Positions 1 to 16,601 of a DNA stretch of 64,000 nucleotides are shown here, piece by piece. Each line of letters opens with the position of its first letter. The first letter of the stretch is position 1. The stretch is taken from positions 1,056-65,055 of the forward strand of contig CAZYWG010000011.1 of assembly GCA_964651815.1 (NCBI GenBank), given 5' to 3'. This stretch comes from an uncultured Gammaproteobacteria bacterium. GTDB taxonomy: Bacteria > Patescibacteriota > Microgenomatia > Levybacterales > GWA1-39-11. The notes under the pieces were generated by a model. It saw only the letters and a list, made by a program, of their open reading frames with translations. It was not told the origin of the DNA and did no database searches. The position numbers were made by a program, and so were the translations under genes.

Positions 1-952
1 ATCAACTAATATTGCACTTTCTATCTCATTTGCTATTTTTTATATTGGGTGTCTAGCGACACTTATAATTGTAAACGATACTAAAAAAATAGTAGCCCAT
101 GCTCTATTACCGGTAATCTTTGGGATAGGTATTTTTCTTTGCATATACAGGATATTGTTGGTCTACTTTCCTCCAATAGTTCCTTTAAATGGATACCAAC
201 TGGTTTCTTCATTCTATGGGTCCCATAACCACCTTGGGGATTTTTTGATTCTTCCGCTCACAGCAATTTTTTATATCTTAATGAATAAGAATAATAAAAT
301 ACACCCTCTCATACTCTTATTATTATCAATATTTTTTGCACCTTACTTTCTTTTTTCATTTTCAAGGAGCGCATATTTTTCTGTTATCGTAACATTAATT
401 TTCATGTTTTATTATTTTGTAAAAAAAGGAAGAATAAGACTGATTGAATTCAGAACTTTACTTATGATTTTGGTTATATGTATTCTCACCTTATTTATGT
501 TTTCTGTTTCAATTTTCTCAAGTCAAAAAAATTTAGTTTCTGAAATTAATACTCATCTGGTTGAGAATAACAACCTTTCATATAAAGCTCCGTTTGGTGC
601 CAGGGGAGAATATGTAAGAGAAGCTATACTTGCAATTTTTTACAAACCCATTTTTGGTGTTGGTCCGGGAAATTTTATAGAAATTTCAAAAAAGTATAAT
701 CCTATTCAGGGACTTTGGGCAGAGTCTTCTCATAATCTATTCTTAAATATAATGGTTGAAGATGGTATTGCAGCTGGGTTGATACTTTTTATTATAATTG
801 TTGAGATCTTCAGGAAGTCAGAGAAGAACATTTATTTCTTTATGGCACTAGCCTTGCTTATAAATTTTCAGACGGATTACACTTTTAGAATATACTCACT
901 GTTCTTTTTATTTTTTGTTTTGTGTGGGTTGTGTCAACAAAAAGAAAGTTAG
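1..952 (+). CDS. O-antigen ligase (Wzy/WaaL-like) family membrane protein, 5'-partial. The frame is open back to the window start.
   Basis: Multi-TM protein with the motif ...GVGPGNF...AESSHNLFLNIMVEDGIAAG typical of the O-antigen ligase family. No in-frame stop between position 2 and the Met at 155. Confidence 0.55.
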   Translation, partial: STNIALSISFAIFYIGCLATLIIVNDTKKIVAHALLPVIFGIGIFLCIYRILLVYFPPIVPLNGYQLVSSFYGSHNHLGDFLILPLTAIFYILMNKNNKIHPLILLLLSIFFAPYFLFSFSRSAYFSVIVTLIFMFYYFVKKGRIRLIEFRTLLMILVICILTLFMFSVSIFSSQKNLVSEINTHLVENNNLSYKAPFGARGEYVREAILAIFYKPIFGVGPGNFIEISKKYNPIQGLWAESSHNLFLNIMVEDGIAAGLILFIIIVEIFRKSEKNIYFFMALALLINFQTDYTFRIYSLFFLFFVLCGLCQQKES

Positions 953-1536
953 TTAGAAGGAATACAGGGCTTCATAACTACAGAGGAAACAGGTTTGTTA
1001 TTCTGAAAATAAACTCCATTTAAAATATTTCCATCGGTACCAGAATAAATATCAAAAGAAACTTTACTATTTGCAAGTCTGGTTTTACCAATAAGAGATA
1101 TTTTTACTAGTTCTGGTTGAATTTTTCCTTTATATACATAAATAACAGAAGCCTCTCTTCCTTTAATTTCTTTAACTATGAATCCTGAAGGTACTTGGTT
1201 TCCCCATTTACCTTCCCAAGCCCCAACAAAGGATGGTTGTGTTCTGCTAGCATTCGGAACAGGATTGCCAAAATCAGGTGCTACACCCGGAGGAATAAAC
1301 TGACACTTTGCAATATTTGCTGTAGTTTGTGAACCATTACTACCAGAATTTATTTGGTATTGAGTGTTATTTTTTGCTTGGTGTGGTAAAACAGGTATTG
1401 AAGACGGTAAAATGTTAAAAAAATTAAAGGTTATGACAATTAATATAACTAATACTGCAAGACAAACTCCTATAATAATTAATCTTTTTGATGACCCTTG
1501 TGTATTTGGTGTGGTATTAGGTTCGTTTGAATCCAT
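949..1536 (-). CDS. Hypothetical membrane-anchored protein, N-terminal TM then Ser/Gly/Asn-rich region. Start chosen at the internal Met (MDSNEP...).
   Basis: ORF 949..1758. The hydrophobic segment LIIIGVCLAVLVILIVITFNFF follows the Met at 1536. The upstream part of the ORF looks non-coding (AT-rich, low complexity). Confidence 0.4.
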   Translation of the reverse strand: MDSNEPNTTPNTQGSSKRLIIIGVCLAVLVILIVITFNFFNILPSSIPVLPHQAKNNTQYQINSGSNGSQTTANIAKCQFIPPGVAPDFGNPVPNASRTQPSFVGAWEGKWGNQVPSGFIVKEIKGREASVIYVYKGKIQPELVKISLIGKTRLANSKVSFDIYSGTDGNILNGVYFQNNKPVSSVVMKPCIPSN

Positions 1537-1772
1537 AAATAAATAGTAGGATAGTTTACAAGGTTTGTCAATATTACATATATAAACTCCTACGTTTATA
1601 ATACAAATATTGATATTTGTATTTTTTTGTATATAACAATTTTTAAATGTAAGAAATTGTGTAAAATAAAAAGCGTTTTTTAATAATGTCCACATTGGCT
1701 CATTATAAATAGTGCAATTTGAAATAATATACATTATTAATTTCAATTTGCGTAGCAAATACGGACTATGGG

Positions 1773-3617
1773 TTGGCGATTATTAAGCGTAGTAAAATTA
1801 ATATGGAGACAAATATTAGCGGAAAATTTAGTGAAGTTAAGAGAACTTTTATAGTTTCTGTAAGGCTTTTGAAAACTATTTGGAGCTTTGACAGTAAAAT
1901 TCTTGTATTTCAGTTTGTAATAACCGGCGCACAGTCACTAATACCCTTTATAAACGCATTTATCTACGCATTAATTATTGATCTTATTGTAAGAAACATT
2001 GGAAGACCATTCAACTCATCAAACCTAATTGTATTGCTCGGAGTGAGATTTTTAACTTTGCTTGTGCAATTTTCAATAAATTCTATTCAAAGTTATATAG
2101 ATCTTGTAACGTGGTCAAGACTCCCAATTTATTTATATCAGTTGATTTTAGGTAAAATTACAAACCTTGAGGTTGAATACTTTGAAAACCCAAAATTCCG
2201 TGATGCACTACAAAAAGTCCGTGAAAGTTATGCATGGATGCCATTAAATATGTATACGAATATTTTTGGGGTGATTCAAGCTTTAATCCAACTCGCAACG
2301 GCTTTTATATTATTATCTTTTTTAAACGTTTTTCTTGCAATAGGAATAATAGCTGCTGCAATGCCTTCTTTTTTAATCCAAATCAAATATTCAAAAACTC
2401 TTTGGGGCGTCTGGGATAAAAATTCACCTCATAAAAAAAGATTTTGGTATTTATCGGATCTAATTCAGCACAGGGAAGCTGTTAAAGAAATGAGAGTATT
2501 TGGGACTTCCAATAAATTCTTAAATGAGATATCTAGGATTCAAGAAAAATTTGCAAATGAAAATCTTGCTGTCGGGAAAAAAAGACTTAGGGATTCCTCT
2601 ATCTTAAGTTTTATAAGTTCAGTAATTTTTATTTTGATTGAGGGAACCATAGCATTTTTTACAATATTAGGCAAAATATCGCTAGGGGGGCTTTCATATT
2701 TCACATTTGTTGTTTGGAATTTTGAAGGCGGTGTGGCATCTTTTTTTAGCAGCGTATCAAAGACGTTCAATCAAAGTTTATACGTTGAAGACATTTTTAA
2801 AGTCCTAGACCTTCCGCAAAAACTACAAAAAGCTGAAAAACCTATTAAAATCAATACGGCAATTACTCCTAAAATTGAATTTAAAAATGTATCTTTTAAA
2901 TACCCGGGTTCAAAAAAGTATACGCTTAAAGATTTTTCCCTAACTATACATCCGGGTGAAAAAATAGCGTTTGTGGGCGAAAATGGTGCAGGGAAAACGA
3001 CAATTATAAAACTTCTTGCAAGGTTCTATGATGTCTCAAGCGGGGAAATATTAATTGATGGGATTAATATCAAAGAATTAGATCTTAACTCCTGGTACAA
3101 GACGATAGGTGCTATTTTCCAAGATTTTATAAAATATGAATATACATTAGCTGAAAATATCCATTTAGGCAAAATTTACGAGCCGTTTAACAAGTCAAAA
3201 ATAATATCCGCAGCAAAACTTTCTGGAACTGACAAAATCGCAGAAAAATTGGAAAAAGGTTATGATCAAATGCTTGGACTTACCTTTTCCGGAGGAACAG
3301 AATTATCTTTAGGTCAATGGCAAAAAGTTGCGCTAGGTAGGGCATTTTTACGCGATGCTCCAATTTTAATTTTAGATGAACCAACTGCCTCGATTGATGC
3401 AAAAGCTGAAAAAGAAATTTTTGATAAAGTTGAAAGATTGAGAGGAAATAAAACCGTTATAATAATTTCCCATAGGTTTTCGACTGTCAGAAATGCAGAC
3501 AAAATTTTTGTAATTAATAAGGGTAAAATTGCCGAAGAGGGAAATCATAAAGAATTGTTAGCAAATAACAAGATTTATGCCAAATTATTCAAAGTTCAAG
3601 CAGAAAAGTATCAATAA
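1773..3617 (+). CDS. ABC exporter, fused permease and ATPase (MsbA/ABCB-like). Candidate exporter of the adjacent RiPP.
   Basis: N-terminal 6-TM region. Walker A GENGAGKTT, signature-like FSGGTELSLGQWQK, Walker B ILILDEPTASID. Confidence 0.85.
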   Translation: MAIIKRSKINMETNISGKFSEVKRTFIVSVRLLKTIWSFDSKILVFQFVITGAQSLIPFINAFIYALIIDLIVRNIGRPFNSSNLIVLLGVRFLTLLVQFSINSIQSYIDLVTWSRLPIYLYQLILGKITNLEVEYFENPKFRDALQKVRESYAWMPLNMYTNIFGVIQALIQLATAFILLSFLNVFLAIGIIAAAMPSFLIQIKYSKTLWGVWDKNSPHKKRFWYLSDLIQHREAVKEMRVFGTSNKFLNEISRIQEKFANENLAVGKKRLRDSSILSFISSVIFILIEGTIAFFTILGKISLGGLSYFTFVVWNFEGGVASFFSSVSKTFNQSLYVEDIFKVLDLPQKLQKAEKPIKINTAITPKIEFKNVSFKYPGSKKYTLKDFSLTIHPGEKIAFVGENGAGKTTIIKLLARFYDVSSGEILIDGINIKELDLNSWYKTIGAIFQDFIKYEYTLAENIHLGKIYEPFNKSKIISAAKLSGTDKIAEKLEKGYDQMLGLTFSGGTELSLGQWQKVALGRAFLRDAPILILDEPTASIDAKAEKEIFDKVERLRGNKTVIIISHRFSTVRNADKIFVINKGKIAEEGNHKELLANNKIYAKLFKVQAEKYQ

Positions 3618-3724
3618 TAATTTGCCGGATTTAATCATACATATTGATGAAATTTGCAAAACTATAGTTAAGAGTACTGATTAAATTACTTTGCAAATAA
3701 ATTTACTTATGTTATTATTTCCGA

Positions 3725-4531
3725 ATGAAAGAAATATATGTGGAAATTGGAGGTTTTGTTATAAGAATTATTCTTGGAAAGAAGACCCTGGATCCACACG
3801 TTTCTTATTTGATCAATAAACTTGAAATTGAACTATTAATATACCTTAGAGGTTTTATAGTACAGAACAAACGAAAAAGATTTGATTTTGAAATTGAGTT
3901 TGAATATATAAAGGAGCCCGGCGTATTGAGTTTACAAAACGAAGATAAGATTTATATACCAATTTTTCAGAAAGTTACTGATAAAAAATTCAAAACTTAC
4001 TATAATTTGAATACATCTCAACTCGAATTAATACTCAAGTATGCCCTTTTATCACTTTTAAAGAAAAATTCAGGCTTTGGAATTCACGCATCTGTTGCAA
4101 AAGTAAATGGCAAAGCATATCTTTTTTTGGGTGAAAGTGGAGCTGGAAAATCTACAATAGTTGAGCTTATTAAAGAAGTTTTTCCAACAATTAATGACGA
4201 TATGACTTTTATCAGAAAAATAAACAGTGAGTATTGCGTTTTTCAAACTCCATTTAGCGAGAAGCCTTGGTGGATAAACAAGAGTAAAAAATTCGTCAAA
4301 GTGAATAAAATTATCTTTATTCATAAATCACGCTCATCTGATAGCAATAAAATAAATGACAAAAAAATTATAGCTAAGAGGGTTTTAGGTCAAGTTATGG
4401 TTGCGCAACACTTAGATAGTTATATAATTAAAAATGTTACAAATTTTACAAACTTTATTCAAAATTTTTATGATTTAAATTTTGAGAAAGATGTTGATAA
4501 AACTATTAGTTTAGTATCAAAATTGAAATGA
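3725..4531 (+). CDS. HPr kinase C-terminal-domain-like P-loop protein (HprK-related kinase). Putative RiPP-tailoring kinase.
   Basis: P-loop LFLGESGAGKSTIVELIKE resembles the HprK C-domain Walker A. The stop overlaps the PqqD-like gene start by 4 nt (ATGA). Firmicute lasso-peptide clusters encode HprK homologues that phosphorylate a precursor Ser (established knowledge). Confidence 0.6.
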   Translation: MKEIYVEIGGFVIRIILGKKTLDPHVSYLINKLEIELLIYLRGFIVQNKRKRFDFEIEFEYIKEPGVLSLQNEDKIYIPIFQKVTDKKFKTYYNLNTSQLELILKYALLSLLKKNSGFGIHASVAKVNGKAYLFLGESGAGKSTIVELIKEVFPTINDDMTFIRKINSEYCVFQTPFSEKPWWINKSKKFVKVNKIIFIHKSRSSDSNKINDKKIIAKRVLGQVMVAQHLDSYIIKNVTNFTNFIQNFYDLNFEKDVDKTISLVSKLK

Positions 4532-4782
4532 AATATTTTCTTAAAAAGGGGTTTATTTTTCAAAAACATCATGAGATAACTAACATAATTGATGGAGATA
4601 AATCAATACTTCATTCTTTCAACGAGGTAGGGTCTTTTATATTTGAGCAGATAAGAAAAGGAGCTGACCATGTAAAAATTATCGAACGAATGACTAAGAA
4701 ATATAAAATAAGTAAAGAAGTTGCCGAAAAAGACTTAACTGAATTTATATCTAGCCTTAAGAAAAAACAAATAATTTCTTAG
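4528..4782 (+). CDS. PqqD-family protein (RiPP precursor recognition element, RRE, peptide chaperone).
   Basis: 84 aa, ...HSFNEVGSFIFEQIRKGADHVKIIERMTKKYKISKEVAEKDLTEFISSLKKKQII matches the PqqD-like wHTH pattern. Translationally coupled to the kinase-like gene. Confidence 0.7.
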   Translation: MKYFLKKGFIFQKHHEITNIIDGDKSILHSFNEVGSFIFEQIRKGADHVKIIERMTKKYKISKEVAEKDLTEFISSLKKKQIIS

Positions 4783-6015
4783 GCTTGCAAGTGATTTCCT
4801 AAACTGGTACCAAAGAACGAAGTAAATAACTTCCAGGTTTGTGAATATAAATAACTTTCTGATTTCTGATCTTGGAGAAAGTGCATATAATATTTTAAAT
4901 CTTTTCACACCACTAGCTACTCTATAGTCTTCATTAAAAATATTAGTGCCCACCAGATCTTTTTTTATTTCGTTCATAACATCCTTTTTAGGCTTAATAT
5001 GGTTTAAAAATTTGAGTGGCATATTAAATTGATAATACTTTTGAAGTAACAGAAGAACAGGATAGATAAAATTATTAATTTTAAACTCCTCAATAAGTTC
5101 GGCAAGATCATCATAGTTTATTTTTTCAGTTTTTAAAATCTTTACTAGGAGATCATATCTATATGTGCCTGTGAAGTTGTGGTGAAATAGATGTAGCATG
5201 AGATAAACAATCAAGTTTTCAGGAGACAAAATTTTGAAATCTTGATTCAAAACCCTAATAGAGCGGTGTTCAACTAACAATTTTTTTGTAAATTCAATTG
5301 TTAGTTGATTTTGGTATAAAGAGTTGAGGTTTCCTATCTGAGTAAGCAAAAATACAGCTTCTAAGTGTATATCTAGGTAAACTGGGATGTTATTAATTAT
5401 TTTATAAAAGGTTATCTCCATATCACGAGATTTTAGCTTTTTTTGAAGTTTAGAATAAGAAGTATCTGAGATATTAAATTCTAGTCTCTTGAGGATTCTA
5501 ATTACTTTATATAAATCTTTTTTATTGATCAAAATGTCGCAGTCAGAATATATCCTTTTTGCATGGTGACCTTCATAGAAAAGATGTAAGGGTAAACCCT
5601 TGAGAAAAACATACGCTATTTTTTCTTTCTCAAAAGTATTCTTTGTTTTTACTATCTCCTGAAAATATAAAGTAGATTGGAATAGATATATATCGTTAAT
5701 ATTTATTACTCGTTTTTGTTTGCCAACGATTCTTGTTACTTTTTCAACAATTCCTAAGATAGAAGATGGATAAACTTTACCATCTGAAGTCAAGTTATTA
5801 TCCCCACGAGTAATAACGTAGCTTAAATGTTTATAAATTATTCGGTGCGTGAAGATTTGCCCTTCTTTTTTGACTGAGATGATGTCATTTACTTTTAAAT
5901 TACGGAAGTTCTGTTTTTCTATACTTATGACATCTCTGTCAAGCAAAACAGGAAACATACTATTCCCGAAAGTTTTAATTCTCAGTTCTGTGCGAGTTTT
6001 TGTAGGATGCGACAC
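4735..6015 (-). CDS. Fusion protein. N-terminal S26/S24 (signal-peptidase/LexA-type) serine peptidase domain plus C-terminal nucleotidyltransferase-fold domain. Putative leader peptidase/tailoring enzyme.
   Basis: N-term GNSMFPVL ... ITRGDNNLTSDGKV resembles the SPase I/S24 Ser-Lys peptidase motifs (GxSMxP, GDNxxxSxDS). No TM segment. C-term region ...EGHHAKRIYSDCDILI... resembles a GS...DxD nucleotidyltransferase motif. Lies immediately upstream (25-nt gap) of the precursor gene. Confidence 0.55.
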   Translation of the reverse strand: MSHPTKTRTELRIKTFGNSMFPVLLDRDVISIEKQNFRNLKVNDIISVKKEGQIFTHRIIYKHLSYVITRGDNNLTSDGKVYPSSILGIVEKVTRIVGKQKRVININDIYLFQSTLYFQEIVKTKNTFEKEKIAYVFLKGLPLHLFYEGHHAKRIYSDCDILINKKDLYKVIRILKRLEFNISDTSYSKLQKKLKSRDMEITFYKIINNIPVYLDIHLEAVFLLTQIGNLNSLYQNQLTIEFTKKLLVEHRSIRVLNQDFKILSPENLIVYLMLHLFHHNFTGTYRYDLLVKILKTEKINYDDLAELIEEFKINNFIYPVLLLLQKYYQFNMPLKFLNHIKPKKDVMNEIKKDLVGTNIFNEDYRVASGVKRFKILYALSPRSEIRKLFIFTNLEVIYFVLWYQFRKSLASLRNYLFFLKARYKFS

Positions 6016-6040
6016 TTGCTAGATTTTAACACAAGAATAA

Positions 6041-6316
6041 CTATTGGCACCCACAGCTGTAGCATGATCCGTCACCTGCATCACATCCGCAGGGTGAACC
6101 ATTAGACGAAGAGCAATCCCCGCCTCCTGAGTTACAAGTTCCTCCCCCGCAAATATCACAAGTCGCACCTTGAGATGCGCATTCGCATGATGATTGGGCA
6201 AAGACTGCCGGGACAATTGAGTTACTGACTGAATTCAAAAACCGACTACTCATAAAAAAACTAAACTTAATCTTTTGGGATTTAACACTTGGTTTTTCGT
6301 ACGAATTTATGCTCAT
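6041..6316 (-). CDS. RiPP precursor peptide. Leader about 41 aa plus a Cys/Ser/Gly-rich 50-aa core (TOMM/LAP-type).
   Basis: Translation MSINSYEKPSVKSQKIKFSFFMSSRFLNSVSNSIVPAVFAQ-SSCECASQGATCDICGGGTCNSGGGDCSSSNGSPCGCDAGDGSCYSCGCQ. 11 Cys, 12 Ser and 13 Gly in the last 50 residues. Sits directly downstream of the SagB-like and YcaO genes. Start uncertain: an alternative Met lies 21 codons in, and no strong RBS is seen for either. Confidence 0.7.
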   Translation of the reverse strand: MSINSYEKPSVKSQKIKFSFFMSSRFLNSVSNSIVPAVFAQSSCECASQGATCDICGGGTCNSGGGDCSSSNGSPCGCDAGDGSCYSCGCQ

Positions 6317-6369
6317 TTCAATAAAGTATATGCTGAAAAAAACATCATGTCAATAAAGTTTACCATTTA

Positions 6370-7125
6370 CTATACTTCCCCTATTGCCATTGTATATATT
6401 ACAGATTCTTCCAAGACGTCTAACTCCAAGTGGTTGTTTATTACATCATCTACATATCCACCAATTGCACATGCTCCAATTTTCTGACTTACGGCGTTCA
6501 AGTAAAAGTTCTGTGCCATATGTCCGGCCTCCTCTAGCATTAGTCTATACCCTCTATCTCCATACTTCATTGTGTTTCTATTAAATACTGCAGATATAAA
6601 AATTAGGCCTCCTGTTTTTTTGATCCACGGGATATTTGTAATTTTTGGAAGTAGATCTTTTTTATTGAATTTAAACATCTTTTCAAAACTATTATTCTGC
6701 ACAAAATAGTGATAAGAAGCATTGTCAAGTTCACTTTTCAAACTCAAAAAATAAACCTCTAAAGGAAAGCGTGCTCCAGGGGATGGGTAAAAACGTCTTT
6801 CCGAAGGTGTGTTATTAGGTATTCCGGCACTATAATAAAAAAGGTTACTTAATTTTTTTAAGCTCAGTTTTTTATTTGAGAAGTCACGTACTGACCTTCT
6901 TGTATAAAGGGCATCTGAAAGTAGAACGTTGCTTGCGGAAGGTTTTGGTAATTTAATCTCACTAAATCTTCCATAGCTTTTGTAATAAATCTTCTTCCAT
7001 TCCTGCGGCCAATAAATGGTGGATGAAATTCGTCTCATTTTCTTAATTTTTGTAAAGTTATGGAACCTTTGAAATTCAGTGGTAAGCTTTCCTGTTAGAT
7101 GGTAAATTGGTTTATATTTTTTCAT
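6370..7125 (-). CDS. SagB-type (nitroreductase-family, FMN) azoline dehydrogenase.
   Basis: Nitroreductase hallmark ALYTRRSVRDF and C-terminal KIGACAIGGYVDDVINNHLELD. Start overlaps the YcaO stop by 4 nt. Confidence 0.75.
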   Translation of the reverse strand: MKKYKPIYHLTGKLTTEFQRFHNFTKIKKMRRISSTIYWPQEWKKIYYKSYGRFSEIKLPKPSASNVLLSDALYTRRSVRDFSNKKLSLKKLSNLFYYSAGIPNNTPSERRFYPSPGARFPLEVYFLSLKSELDNASYHYFVQNNSFEKMFKFNKKDLLPKITNIPWIKKTGGLIFISAVFNRNTMKYGDRGYRLMLEEAGHMAQNFYLNAVSQKIGACAIGGYVDDVINNHLELDVLEESVIYTMAIGEV

Positions 7126-8381
7126 AAAAATGGGTGAGGAATTGGATTCAAACCGTCAAATTTTTTTCCAAAAAAATTTGCAACTTTTTTTAGTCTTTCA
7201 ATATTTACAACTTTTTCCTTCTCATGCTCAATTAAATATAGGGGATTAAGTCCAGGTATCATTACATAATAAGAAAGAAAGTTTAGTTTTCTAAATTCGT
7301 CCACTGTGGAATCCACGTAGTACACTTTATAACCAAGTTTTTTTAATTTTTTAAGTACTTTAGCAAGTTCTGATTTAATTTTTAAGTTAAATTTTTGAGC
7401 TTGATAATCAACTCGGCGTCCTGCAATCAAAAATTCAATATTTTTTAGACTAGATGAAGAAATCCAATATTTTGCCCTATTTGGAAACAAACCATCAGCA
7501 GTTTTAAAGTCAAAAGAGATTTTACCTTGTATTAACATATTTTTTGTATATAGCCTAGTCATCAGTGTTTCGCCAGCAGAGGCTATTATTGCATCTACGC
7601 TTTTAAACCCTGCCTTTCCTCCTAGACTAATGGCGGGACCCAGACCAGTTCTATCAATTGCCACTGATAGAAAAGAAGGAATACCGAGATCAGTTGTAGC
7701 ATCTAAAACGTATAGATCAAGATTAAATTTATGATATAAGTCTAGAATATATTTAATTCTTTTGTCTTTTATAGCTGATAAGTTAACAATTGGAGGAGAG
7801 ATTTTGTTGAGGTATACTCCCATTAGGGAATCCCTTTCAATTAATTCATAAATACCATTTAACAGTGCCATTTCGTGTGATGCTCCACCTGCTGAACCAT
7901 TAGTATTATGTGGAAAATCAAGATGAGGTTCATTCTTTAACCTTTGGTAATTAAGGTAAACAAACTGTGCAGGAATGAGTTTATTTTTATTTGTAAAGAC
8001 TTCTACCCCCTTGACCCATCCAAACTTGCTTGATTTGACTTGTGGATCTTTTGAAAAATAGCTTAGGTTAAGGAAACTTTCATTATTTTTAGGAATTTTT
8101 TTTATGATGGATTTTCTTTTGAAACTATAATTACAAAATCGCTCCATTGCTTCCCAAATAGATTTCATCACCGCTGATTCCTCATCAAAATATGATACAC
8201 CAGACCCATGAAGGTCACTTGAATTGACCTTTCCATCAGAATACTTTTTATTTGTTTTAAAATTAGTGCTAAAACTTTTTTGTCTTGGCTCGTCGTTATA
8301 TTGTGTGTTTTTTTGTACTTTTGGCTCTAGACCCAAATCATAGAGTTGATCCAAAAGAGTTATTAATTGGCCTTTCTTCAT
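7122..8381 (-). CDS. YcaO-domain cyclodehydratase (TOMM D-protein-like), standalone with no fused E1-like domain.
   Basis: YcaO motifs SAVMKSIWEAMERF and TNGSAGGASHEMALLNGIYELIERDS. 419 aa. Confidence 0.8.
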   Translation of the reverse strand: MKKGQLITLLDQLYDLGLEPKVQKNTQYNDEPRQKSFSTNFKTNKKYSDGKVNSSDLHGSGVSYFDEESAVMKSIWEAMERFCNYSFKRKSIIKKIPKNNESFLNLSYFSKDPQVKSSKFGWVKGVEVFTNKNKLIPAQFVYLNYQRLKNEPHLDFPHNTNGSAGGASHEMALLNGIYELIERDSLMGVYLNKISPPIVNLSAIKDKRIKYILDLYHKFNLDLYVLDATTDLGIPSFLSVAIDRTGLGPAISLGGKAGFKSVDAIIASAGETLMTRLYTKNMLIQGKISFDFKTADGLFPNRAKYWISSSSLKNIEFLIAGRRVDYQAQKFNLKIKSELAKVLKKLKKLGYKVYYVDSTVDEFRKLNFLSYYVMIPGLNPLYLIEHEKEKVVNIERLKKVANFFGKKFDGLNPIPHPFL

Positions 8382-8560
8382 AGATTGGAGTATATCTTAT
8401 TATTCAACTCTGAAAAAGTAAAGGATAGGATGGAATTGACTATTTCTTGAAGATTACTTAGTTAAAATCATTAGTGAATAGTTTCAAAGATTAATTTTTG
8501 TTGAACCAAAGGTGAGGTTTCTGAATGCTAAGCTGTTTTATTAATACTTTATCAAAAACA

Positions 8561-9127
8561 CTAAAGAATTAAAACAGCACCGCCTACAATCATGAATATA
8601 ACTGAAATGAAACCAACTGTAAGTGTAGACGTAACAGAACCTGTAGGTTTTATTGTTGGCTGTGGGGTTGCAGGAGGTATTGTAGGGGCCGTCGTTGAGG
8701 TAGGTGAAACACCTGCTTGGGTTTGGCAAAGAAGTTGGAAAGACCCAACAGGTCCTGCTGTTCCACAAGAATTAACTGCTGAAACGTCACATTTATAAGT
8801 CTTTCCTTGTGTAATAGAAAAGGAAATATTTGTTGTTGCGGCCGGGACTTGTTGATTGTATATTGTTGTGCTAGTTTCAAGTTCTGTTACAACTACATTA
8901 TAATTTGCTGCTGAGGCGACAGTCCCCCAAGTACAACCGGCTTGTGTAAAATTACATTGGGTCCCTACACAGTTTGGATAAACAACTTCAACATTTTGAA
9001 CAGCATCAGGAGTTGTACATGCTGGAGTTTGGGCAAGAGCTTTAGGCGAATAAAATGATAAAGCGATCAGAAATCCCCCAATAAAAACCAGAATGGGCAA
9101 AGATAATTTAAATATTTTCCTCAGCAT
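8561..9127 (-). CDS. Secreted/surface protein. Signal peptide, Cys-containing beta-rich domain, Pro/Thr-rich linker, C-terminal TM anchor.
   Basis: N-term MLRKIFKLSLPILVFIGGFLIALSFYSPKALAQ. 8 Cys in the mature domain. PTIPPATPQPTIKPT linker. C-terminal hydrophobic VGFISVIFMIVGGAVLIL. Confidence 0.45.
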   Translation of the reverse strand: MLRKIFKLSLPILVFIGGFLIALSFYSPKALAQTPACTTPDAVQNVEVVYPNCVGTQCNFTQAGCTWGTVASAANYNVVVTELETSTTIYNQQVPAATTNISFSITQGKTYKCDVSAVNSCGTAGPVGSFQLLCQTQAGVSPTSTTAPTIPPATPQPTIKPTGSVTSTLTVGFISVIFMIVGGAVLIL

Positions 9128-15656: not shown

Positions 15657-16601
15657 ATGCAAAAAGATTTTTCAATTGTTGTCCCCGTGTATAACGAACA
15701 AGAAAGTGTGAGAGAGCTTGTTTTAAATATCCAAAAAGCGTTTTCAAAGATGAAGAAAACTTATGAAATACTTTTTGTTGATGATGGGTCTAATGACAAT
15801 ACGCTCGAAATACTAAAAACACTCGAACGAGAATTTAAAAATGTCAAGATTTACTCTTTCAGAAGAAATTTGGGAAAATCCCCAGCACTAACTCTTGGTT
15901 TTCAAAAAGCCACAGGTAAGTTTGTTGTCACCATGGATGGAGATCTACAAGATGACCCAATAAATATCCTGAGACTATATCAGAAGCTGACACATGGAGG
16001 ATTTGACCTTGTAACGGGTTGGAGAAAAGAAAGAAAAGATGGGATATTTAAAAAATTGTCATCAAAACTTTTTAATAAAATCGCAATCCCCTTCTTGTTT
16101 AGTTTAAAACTCAATGACCTTAATAGTGGACTAAAAATTTACAGATTAGAACTTGCCCGAGAACTTAAAATATATGGGGGTATGCACAGATTTATTCCTG
16201 TGATTGCAAACGAAATGGGTTACAAAGTTTCAGAAATTGACACTATTCACCACGCCAGAAAATACGGAGTATCAAAATACAAATTCTCAAAAATGTTTAC
16301 GGATATTCCGGATCTTATGACAATTTATTTTATTACAAAATATAATCGCAGACCGCTTCATTTTTTTGGAAAAATAGGATCGTTTGTTTTAGTAATCGGA
16401 ATTATTATTCTTATTTATCTTTCAATTCTTCATTTCATGGGACAGGCAATTGGGGACAGACCACTTTTAATGTTTGGTATTTTACTTGTGATCGCAGGTA
16501 TTCAGACTATCTTTACTGGACTAATAGCAGACCTGATTGTTAACTTTAACAATAGAGGTGAAGCCACGTTTCCAATAAAGTACGAAACTCGAGCAATTTA
16601 A
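15657..16601 (+). CDS. Family 2 glycosyltransferase (polyprenyl-phosphate sugar synthase, DPM1/ArnC-like) with C-terminal TM helices.
   Basis: IVVPVYNEQESV ... FVDDGSNDNT ... DGDLQDDP, the GT-A DxD pattern. Two C-terminal hydrophobic helices. Confidence 0.8.
   Translation: MQKDFSIVVPVYNEQESVRELVLNIQKAFSKMKKTYEILFVDDGSNDNTLEILKTLEREFKNVKIYSFRRNLGKSPALTLGFQKATGKFVVTMDGDLQDDPINILRLYQKLTHGGFDLVTGWRKERKDGIFKKLSSKLFNKIAIPFLFSLKLNDLNSGLKIYRLELARELKIYGGMHRFIPVIANEMGYKVSEIDTIHHARKYGVSKYKFSKMFTDIPDLMTIYFITKYNRRPLHFFGKIGSFVLVIGIIILIYLSILHFMGQAIGDRPLLMFGILLVIAGIQTIFTGLIADLIVNFNNRGEATFPIKYETRAI

Follow-up and report, generated by a model that had tools for sequence, protein, structure and literature searches.

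A Patescibacterial fusion of an LppS-like S26 peptidase and an LppN-like nucleotidyltransferase as a predicted bifunctional peptide maturation enzyme

Introduction

Clusters for 'linear polyphosphorylated peptides' (LPPs) were defined in Bacillota by Popov et al. (Nat Commun, May 2026; PMC13381572) from homologues of the archaeal-type signal peptidase of lasso peptide clusters. The core genes encode the precursor LppA, the HprK-like kinase LppK, the recognition element LppB (RRE, recognition element of RiPPs, peptides that are ribosomally synthesized and then modified post-translationally), the SipW-like peptidase LppS, the MsbA-like LppD and the NTP transferase LppN. LppS cuts after Thr-1 (FET/AQS, the slash marking the cut) only in the presence of LppB, and S29, H68 and D93 are essential. 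Core residue Ser3 is polyphosphorylated by LppK, and a precursor lacking phosphorylation is poorly cut. Deletion of LppN was without visible effect. The leader motif is YxxPxVLxHQxIxFETxxS, and the clusters sit within capsular polysaccharide loci (PMC13381572). Here we analysed a stretch of 64,000 nucleotides, termed the window, from an uncultured bacterium of the GTDB lineage Patescibacteriota, Microgenomatia, Levybacterales, GWA1-39-11 (assembly GCA_964651815.1, contig CAZYWG010000011.1, positions 1,056 to 65,055, forward strand). It carries a gene in which an LppS-like S26 leader peptidase is fused to an LppN-like NTP_transf_5 nucleotidyltransferase (NTase).

Lasso clusters provide a second point of reference. 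Pseudomycoidin receives one or two hexoses on its phosphorylated C-terminal Ser; this step requires the DxD motif of the NTase PsmN, and a DxD mutant loses the hexose modification (PMC6993621). In some cases an NTase of the PsmN type forms a fusion with the lasso B2 protease (PMC8498205). From Microgenomates, Sharrar et al. 2020 noted clusters for linear azole-containing peptides (LAPs) with 'YcaO, nitroreductase and peptidase', where the peptidase was left unanalysed and its NTase half went unnoticed (PMC7298704). The S26::NTase architecture (S::N) is unmentioned in the RRE-Finder paper, and PMC13381572 mentions no fusion, no YcaO and no Patescibacteria. A preliminary description of the window had held that a polypeptide combining both activities is not a described RiPP enzyme class. 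This is outdated because a cytoplasmic LppS with RRE, an HprK-like kinase and LppN were described in 2026 (PMC13381572); only the S26::NTase fusion itself is undescribed.

We propose that the fusion is a cytoplasmic, possibly membrane-peripheral bifunctional maturation enzyme, i.e. the Patescibacterial counterpart of the LPP machinery merged with azole-forming enzymes. We assign this reading a probability of roughly 0.65.

Results

A single polypeptide with two domains

The open reading frame exists exactly as the preliminary description had given it (Table 1). The 426-residue protein contains the peptidase boxes G17-N-S19-M-F-P22 and G71-D-N-N-L-T-S-D78-G-K-V and, further downstream, the NTase motif E148...Y-S-D158-C-D160-I-L. 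Pfam NTP_transf_5 (PF14907) matched residues 113-328 with E=1.8e-19, above the gathering score. The NCBIfam model TIGR02228 (archaeal-type signal peptidase I) matched residues 16-94 with E=2.4e-9, below the cut-off but specific. An AlphaFold2 model from 106 homologues had a predicted local distance difference test score (pLDDT) of 94.3 and a predicted template modelling score (pTM) of 0.91. In the model a beta-barrel (11-104) is followed by a long linker helix (106-130), then by an alpha/beta NTase core (135-217) and finally by a helical bundle (236-425). Foldseek searches of the PDB returned LexA/UmuD C-domains, human SEC11A/C and SipA for the N-terminal part and the nucleotidyltransferases LnuA, MenT1, ANT(2'')-Ia and TM1012 for the C-terminal part. 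Together with the SEC11 profile matches described below, these data confirm both domain assignments made earlier; the outcome in which structure prediction showed neither fold did not occur.

The predicted lack of a membrane anchor was borne out as well. No transmembrane segment was found in the protein, the best 19-residue Kyte-Doolittle window being 1.37. The C-terminal helix (394-425) is hydrophobic or amphipathic. In many homologues its hydropathy is 1.6-2.0, which suggests peripheral membrane association.

A search of a 5.8-billion-protein database yielded 378 matches, of which the best 120 were inspected. These are 388-465 residues long, the shortest ones starting at Met20, and all hosts are Patescibacteria (Levy-, Roizman- and Gottesmanbacteria and the Microgenomates group). 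The full-length fusion occurred in more than 100 distinct homologues with 41-76% identity. Thus it is one polypeptide, and a frameshift or two-gene artefact is ruled out. In an exhaustive search of 50%-identity representatives 204 clusters were recovered at E<=1e-30, the listed ones almost all with 380-455 residues. The GTDB species-representative genome collection contained 78 loci with the fusion, all in Patescibacteria (Microgenomates). With at least this many clusters and loci the fusion is common in the Candidate Phyla Radiation (CPR). The CPR also yielded NTase-only-like matches of about 300 residues. Of these, P0210 is located 9 bases away from where a 1.1-kb contig ends, and P0216 starts mid-domain without Met. 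P0211, P0223 and P0236 start with Met, and given these a stand-alone NTase may exist in the CPR.

The start codon of the fusion gene deserves comment. The GTG at position 6015 is the only start that retains Ser19; an in-frame TAG is located two codons before it, and no Shine-Dalgarno sequence was found for it. The contig's own database record (P0001, 407 residues) begins at Met20, whereby the catalytic Ser is lost, and the same holds for 15 of the 120 listed entries, P0001 among them. The residues ahead of Met20 (IKTFGNS) are kept in 105 of the 120 homologues, and the nearest relative (76% identity) has an ATG 17 codons upstream with the same IKT(F/Y)GNSM sequence. Both observations argue that the longer reading with Ser19 is right. 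The Met20 calls in public records look like a systematic start-site error.

The peptidase half is of the Sec11/SipW type

A Ser/Lys dyad had been proposed for the peptidase half. This was not borne out because His57 occupies the position of the catalytic Lys of bacterial signal peptidases and LexA. The boxes SM.P, (T)HR(V/I) and (K/R)GDNN..D are those of the endoplasmic reticulum (ER)/archaeal S26B type, and the profile of the 106 homologues matched human SEC11C (E=3e-5) and SEC11A (E=6e-5) in the PDB with SM.P, HRV and KGDNN..D aligned. Alignments of 30 and of 106 sequences showed G17, S19, M20, P22, H57, R58, G71, D72 and D78 to be invariant or near-invariant. His57-Arg58 and Asp78 are invariant and align with H68 and D93 of LppS and with the catalytic residues of SEC11. 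With His instead of Lys as general base, Ser/Lys chemistry of the S24/LexA type is ruled out. As judged from the alignments, the catalytic apparatus is Ser19-His57-Asp78 of the ER/archaeal (Sec11/SipW) type.

For comparisons with the LPP system we relied on the sequences given for LppS and LppB in Supplementary Data 1 of PMC13381572 and on a Paenibacillus lpp locus (L089). The S26 domain aligned with the LppS family at 98.9% and E=1e-17 in hhalign, S19 corresponding to S29, H57 to H68 and D78 to D93.

We considered whether the protein is a SipW-like signal peptidase that acts on secreted proteins, in a housekeeping or a dedicated role, or else a self-cleaving regulator resembling LexA/UmuD, coincidentally joined to an unrelated NTase. 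Homologues are publicly annotated as 'signal peptidase I', LexA and UmuD C-domains are among the Foldseek matches, and among the products of neighbouring genes are secreted proteins whose signal peptides have cleavage sites of the form ...A-Q-T/S. However, the protein has no N-terminal anchor or signal sequence, so that the outer face of the membrane is out of reach for its active site, and the NTase needs cytoplasmic nucleotides. The His at the general-base position speaks against a LexA-like regulator. An RRE gene is linked to the fusion in 32 of 35 loci (see below), and the best relative outside the CPR is LppS, a proven cytoplasmic leader peptidase. We regard this explanation as largely refuted and very improbable.

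The nucleotidyltransferase half retains its metal site

The NTase half shows the features of polymerase-beta-like nucleotidyltransferases, i.e. the glycine loop (G140), the DxD motif (D158/D160) and an invariant third carboxylate (D215), in addition to the fold matches with LnuA, ANT(2'') and MenT1. Of the GS...DxD signature in the preliminary description the DxD motif stood, while 'GS' is really K139-G140-L. Invariant or near-invariant residues of this half are K139, G140, D158, D160, D215, H217, H275, H278, H279, N280 and R286. In hhalign the domain scored 69% with E=5e-5 against LppN and 91% with E=1e-6 against the NTase of an adjacent lasso cluster in the Paenibacillus locus. All three belong to one Pfam family.

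The earlier proposal that the domain nucleotidylates the core is not established: the relative PsmN was needed for hexose on phospho-Ser, and deletion of LppN was without visible effect. A related metagenomic protein from outside the window (P0171, 589 residues) combines S26 peptidase, NTP_transf_5 and a C-terminal Bac_transf phosphoglycosyl transferase (Pfam E=9e-52). This triple fusion ties the NTase to sugar-phosphate chemistry at the membrane. PsmN, nearby glycan genes and P0171 together suggest a link of the NTase to sugar-phosphate chemistry.

The NTase domain might be catalytically silent. The peptidase would then act as proposed, and the NTase would be a scaffold or substrate-binding module holding the leader or the RRE, or a nucleotide-gated regulator of cleavage; the product would be a linear azole-containing, possibly phosphorylated peptide. 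Catalytically silent partner domains occur in many RiPP pathways. In addition, the AlphaFold2 model packs both halves rigidly (pTM 0.91), and in the heterologous LPP system the products were unaffected by the deletion of LppN (PMC13381572). Yet G140, D158, D160 and D215 are invariant and H275, H278-H279-N280 and R286 are invariant or nearly so in 106 sequences at 40-50% identity, which argues for retained catalysis. The loss of hexose modification in the DxD mutant of PsmN also points to an active enzyme. On balance, we consider a silent NTase unlikely.

The precursor peptides share a leader with a signal peptide-like junction

The gene preceding the fusion encodes a 91-residue precursor, and in related loci we collected homologues to a total of 24 distinct precursors. 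They have the common leader (K/R)-Y-x-x-P-x-(I/V)-x-x-K-K-(I/V)-K-x-x-F-F-x-S...Phi-Phi-A-(Q)-(S) and are hypervariable past the leader junction. The spacing from Pro to Ala is 30-34 in most of them. At the junction P3 is L/V/A/I in 22 of 24, P2 is L/Y/F in 23 and P1 is Ala in all 24, with a helix breaker (G/P/S/N) at P5/P6 in 23. Gln was found at P1' in 14 and Ser at P2' in 12 precursors; that of the window holds Ser42/Ser43 close to the proposed junction. From its sequence, the junction has the pattern of a signal-peptide c-region without a hydrophobic h-region and would be expected for the substrate of a cytoplasmic S26 enzyme. A cut at the LPP-equivalent FFxS, about 12-13 residues past the Pro, is possible but was not our first choice because P1 would be bulky and hydrophobic.

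Three types of cores were seen: Cys/Gly/Ser-rich cores, (GGYYGQ)n repeats and very short cores followed by a HINT domain. One locus (L024) encodes tandem precursors (146-517 and 542-931, both plus strand) with the common leader and (GGYYGQ)n cores, and no YcaO was found within 10 kb. HINT-bearing precursors are located in L005 (13317-13952, plus strand), L014 (3456-4034, plus), L055 (2091-2690, minus) and L063 (6746-7333, minus). All four consist of a YxxPxI...PhiPhiA leader, a core of 4-11 residues ending in Cys and a HINT/intein-like domain (C-F-[LP]-...-H-N/S). With K, S, Q or A as the residue past HINT, ordinary splicing seems improbable. The HINT domain may self-cleave and leave a C-terminal thioester on the short peptide.

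Gene neighbourhood

On the minus strand the order is YcaO, SagB, a promoter-like site, the precursor gene and, after 25 nucleotides, the fusion gene. On the plus strand the ABC exporter, ScmC and PqqD converge on it (Table 1). The promoter match is by consensus only, the count of such sites overall not being above shuffled expectation. At their 3' ends the fusion and PqqD genes share 48 nucleotides in the window, 24 in L001 and 17 in L003. Thus the convergent arrangement is conserved.

Table 1. Coordinates of the fusion gene, its domains and the surrounding features in the window
Feature	Position	Strand	Size	Remarks
Wzy_C gene	155-952	+		glycan gene
AYSGxWxGxW paralogue	949-1758	-		see text
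MsbA-like ABC exporter (LppD-like)	1773..3617	+	614 aa	without peptidase domain; TIGR02203 E=7e-82
ScmC-family HprK-like P-loop protein (LppK homologue)	3725..4531	+	268 aa	Walker A GESGAGKST; TIGR04249, HPrK weak; precomputed PF27840
Discrete RRE, PqqD family (lasso-B1/LppB type)	4528..4782	+	84 aa	PF05402 E=2.6e-11; NF033536 lasso_PqqD_Bac
3' overlap of fusion and PqqD genes	4735-4782	
LppS-like S26 leader peptidase + LppN-like NTP_transf_5 nucleotidyltransferase fusion gene	4735..6015	-	426 aa	GTG start
Linker helix, NTase core and helical bundle	4738..5700	-	residues 106-426	PF14907, invariant columns, Foldseek, hydropathy
NTase-half key codons	G140 5596-5598; D158xD160 5536-5544; D215xH217 5365-5373; H275..HHN280 motif 5176-5193	-		
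S26 (ER/archaeal-type) peptidase barrel	5704..5985	-	residues 11-104	Ser19 5959-5961; His57 5845-5847; Asp78 5782-5784; Asp72 5800-5802
Region concerned by Met20 calls	5956-6015	-		start-site calls in public records
Precursor peptide	6041..6316	-	91 aa	also called as gene in public assemblies
Precursor core	6044-6196	-	51 aa	11 Cys, 12 Ser/Thr
Precursor leader	6197-6316	-	residues 1-40	Y6-E-K-P9-S-V11; junction V38-F39-A40 / Q41-S42-S43
Sigma-70-like promoter match	6325..6353	-		TTGACA-17-TATACT, 11/12; best of region; directly upstream of precursor gene
SagB-type FMN dehydrogenase (azoline to azole)	6370..7125	-		TIGR03605 E=3.4e-31, above cut-off
YcaO cyclodehydratase (SagD-like)	7122..8381	-	419 aa	PF02624 E=1.5e-40; TIGR03604 E=3.5e-50; E1-like partner neither fused nor nearby
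GT2 gene	15657-16601	+		glycan gene

For 35 related loci that have at least 6 kb of flanking sequence on each side, we counted the neighbours up to 10 kb away from the fusion. PqqD was present in 32 of these (31 within 3 kb), ScmC in 31, Wzy_C in 27, a homologous precursor in 19, YcaO with SagB in 15 (about 40%, window included) and an ABC exporter in 7. The fusion is therefore tied first to the RRE and the kinase-like ScmC and not to YcaO. The RiPP context claimed at the outset was right, with YcaO, PqqD and precursor genes adjacent; as to the recurrence of the fusion beside YcaO or PqqD, it held for PqqD and for YcaO in only the minority of loci just given.

ScmC aligned with LppK at 98.6% (E=8e-16) and PqqD with LppB at 94% (E=9e-8) in hhalign. 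The Walker A motif and H121 of ScmC are invariant; its profile gave only P-loop-level matches in the PDB (ABC, phosphoenolpyruvate carboxykinase). The PqqD profile matched TbiB1, TfuB1, PbaB1 and LppB. Among the genes from 155 to 9127 no E1-like or Ocin-ThiF-like YcaO partner was found, and the discrete PqqD is the sole RRE. Being the only RRE nearby, this lasso/LppB-type PqqD may serve several enzymes. An Asn-synthetase-like cyclase and a transglutaminase-fold B2 protease were absent around the fusion in the window, L001-L006, L085 and L088.

Of 34 well-flanked loci, 33 have glycan genes (Wzy_C, Bac_transf, DegT, GT2, PMT_2) no more than 10 kb from the fusion, e.g. at 10287-17236 in L001/L003. 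This raises the question whether the fusion belongs to the biosynthesis of an envelope glycan or glycoprotein, where the NTase would join a phosphopeptide via a phosphodiester to a sugar- or undecaprenyl-linked glycan and the YcaO cluster would be no more than a common neighbour or optional extra. The absence of YcaO in 20 of the 35 loci, the triple fusion P0171 with its phosphoglycosyl transferase, the location of Bacillota LPP clusters inside capsular polysaccharide loci and the hydrophobic C-terminal helix of many homologues are in line with such a role. On the other hand, synteny among related Microgenomates is not independent evidence. Furthermore, SagB and the fusion gene have between them a precursor whose leader matches and whose core is a classic substrate for YcaO. 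A glycan-peptide conjugate of this kind would be without demonstrated precedent. Taken together, we consider a primary role in envelope glycan synthesis quite unlikely.

Paralogous proteins of about 180 residues recur beside YcaO-containing clusters. They have an N-terminal anchor or signal, the motif (A)AYSGxWxGxW and two conserved Cys, and are without family match. Besides the copy in the window (Table 1) they were seen in L005 (9344-9871, 15389-15928) and L006 (1363-1911, 7286-7861, 11969-12502). They could be immunity or receptor proteins.

Discussion

A scheme for the proposed maturation enzyme can be drawn from these results. The PqqD-type RRE, as indicated by its homology, would bind Y6xxP9xV11 of the precursor leader. 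YcaO and SagB, going by their families, would turn Cys and possibly Ser/Thr of the core into azoles. By analogy with Ser3 of LppA, the ScmC/LppK-like putative kinase would phosphorylate Ser42 or Ser43 beside the junction. The NTP_transf_5 domain with its predicted metal site G140/D158xD160/D215 would decorate the phospho-Ser from a nucleotide-activated donor, presumably with a hexose or another phosphodiester-linked group. This NTase chemistry, modelled on PsmN and on the association with glycan genes, is the weakest link of the scheme. Sequence pattern and LppS biochemistry suggest that the Ser19/His57/Asp78 domain cuts the leader after the invariant Ala40, a site that mimics a signal-peptide c-region with G/P at -5/-6, V/L at -3 and Ala at -1. 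Finally, the MsbA-like ABC protein would export the product.

The scheme offers a rationale for the fusion, because the two domains would work on residues that are only 2-3 positions from each other at the leader-core junction. In LPPs three residues separate the phospho-Ser from the scissile bond, and the peptidase and a phosphate-acting enzyme thus share one short stretch.

Several points weigh against this reading. The similarity of the NTase domain to LppN, as scored by hhalign (69%), is weak, and deletion of LppN changed nothing in the sole LPP system studied (PMC13381572). Phosphorylation, the cleavage site and the NTase product of the CPR members are predictions. Ser is found at P2' in only half of the precursors, and about 31 residues separate the RRE motif from the proposed cut compared with 12 in LppA. 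The conserved FFxS sits where LppA has FET/xxS, making a cut or a phospho-site there possible; a cut before Ala (VF/AQS), matching the AQS start of the LppA core, is possible as well. Only 16 residues precede G17 in the window protein, where LppS has an RRE-contacting N-terminal helix, and the start of the fusion gene is an unsupported GTG. An ABC exporter is close to the fusion in just 7 of 35 loci.

If the bifunctional maturation enzyme is as proposed, the LPP machinery extends from Bacillota to the CPR, and the unexamined 'peptidase' of CPR LAP clusters is explained. The fusion amounts to a natural experiment which places the NTase in the complex of the peptidase, acting on nearly the same residues, and thus gives a concrete handle on the role of LppN/PsmN enzymes. 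One leader-handling module would be reused with YcaO azoles, Gly/Tyr repeats and HINT-domain cores, which is relevant to the evolution and engineering of RiPPs. In addition, the systematic Met20 misannotation that deletes the catalytic Ser is now flagged.

A more far-reaching view, which we hold to be a long shot, is that the fusion is the core of a Patescibacteria-wide pathway for peptide-glycan conjugates and not for free antibiotics. The NTase would link the phospho-Ser at the core N-terminus via a phosphodiester to a sugar- or undecaprenyl-phosphate-linked glycan, acting at the membrane with a phosphoglycosyl transferase and a Wzy_C-type ligase. If true, azole-rich, Tyr/Gly-repeat or HINT-processed ribosomal peptides would join the cell surface of episymbiotic bacteria, and the long-missing function of LppN/PsmN-type NTases would be revealed.

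Comparison with known systems

Among described systems we return to the proposed maturation enzyme and its relation to LPP clusters. The window contains an anchorless Ser/His/Asp S26 peptidase, a separate RRE, an HprK-like protein, NTP_transf_5, an MsbA-like exporter and a precursor whose leader is conserved, bears an N-terminal YxxPx(V/L/I) and is followed by a variable core. The neighbourhood labels in the supplement of PMC13381572 (NTP_transf_5, TIGR02228, TIGR04249, PqqD, TIGR02203) are the same families as found around the fusion. In both systems the leader has a YxxPx(V/I/L) motif, the core is hypervariable, a Ser follows shortly past the cut and the setting is a polysaccharide locus. 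They differ in that S and N are one polypeptide here, whereas the Paenibacillus order is A-K-B-S-D-N with S (151 residues) and N (341 residues) separate and the exporter between them. Of 66 LppS homologues retrievable from a large database none was fused, all having 120-160 residues. The hosts are Patescibacteria, while PMC13381572 describes LPPs as confined to Bacillota. Between RRE motif and junction the leader has about 18 more residues, the junction reads PhiPhiA/QS instead of FET/xxS, and the exporter is often not adjacent. The backbone of LPPs is otherwise unmodified; here YcaO and SagB are adjacent in the window and, along with Cys-rich cores, in about 40% of loci. Another CPR architecture, OGV92686.1 (343 residues), is also listed in Supplementary Data 1 of PMC13381572; it is an ABC-type ATPase::SpI-like peptidase beside an RRE gene and the only Microgenomates entry of that dataset.

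The Sec11/SipW (S26B) signal peptidases share the SM.P, HR and GDNN..D boxes and the -3/-1 substrate pattern. In contrast to these the fusion has no hydrophobic N-terminal segment or other transmembrane anchor, is cytoplasmic, carries a C-terminal NTase and, by its homology with LppS, is probably RRE-dependent.

Lasso clusters of the paeninodin/pseudomycoidin type have a B1 RRE of the same clade, an HprK-like kinase (PadeK/PsmK) and a PF14907-type NTase acting on a peptide Ser, and their leader peptidase is sometimes NTase-fused too (B2::NTase). The S26 barrel is unrelated to the B2 fold, so the S26::NTase fusion arose independently. The lasso cyclase and the transglutaminase-fold B2 protease are lacking here, and the modified Ser of lasso systems is C-terminal, unlike the Ser proposed here.

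With LAP clusters, also termed thiazole/oxazole-modified microcin (TOMM) clusters, the locus has in common a YcaO cyclodehydratase, a SagB-type FMN dehydrogenase and a Cys/Ser/Thr/Gly-rich precursor, with 11 Cys in the 51-residue core. It differs from these by lacking an E1-like (SagC) or Ocin-ThiF partner, the leader being handled by LPP/lasso-type parts, and by a leader protease of the S26 type and not of the CaaX, TldD/E or C39 type. Thus the S::N fusion, the CPR host, the hybrid with azole chemistry and the unusual precursor cores are what is new here.

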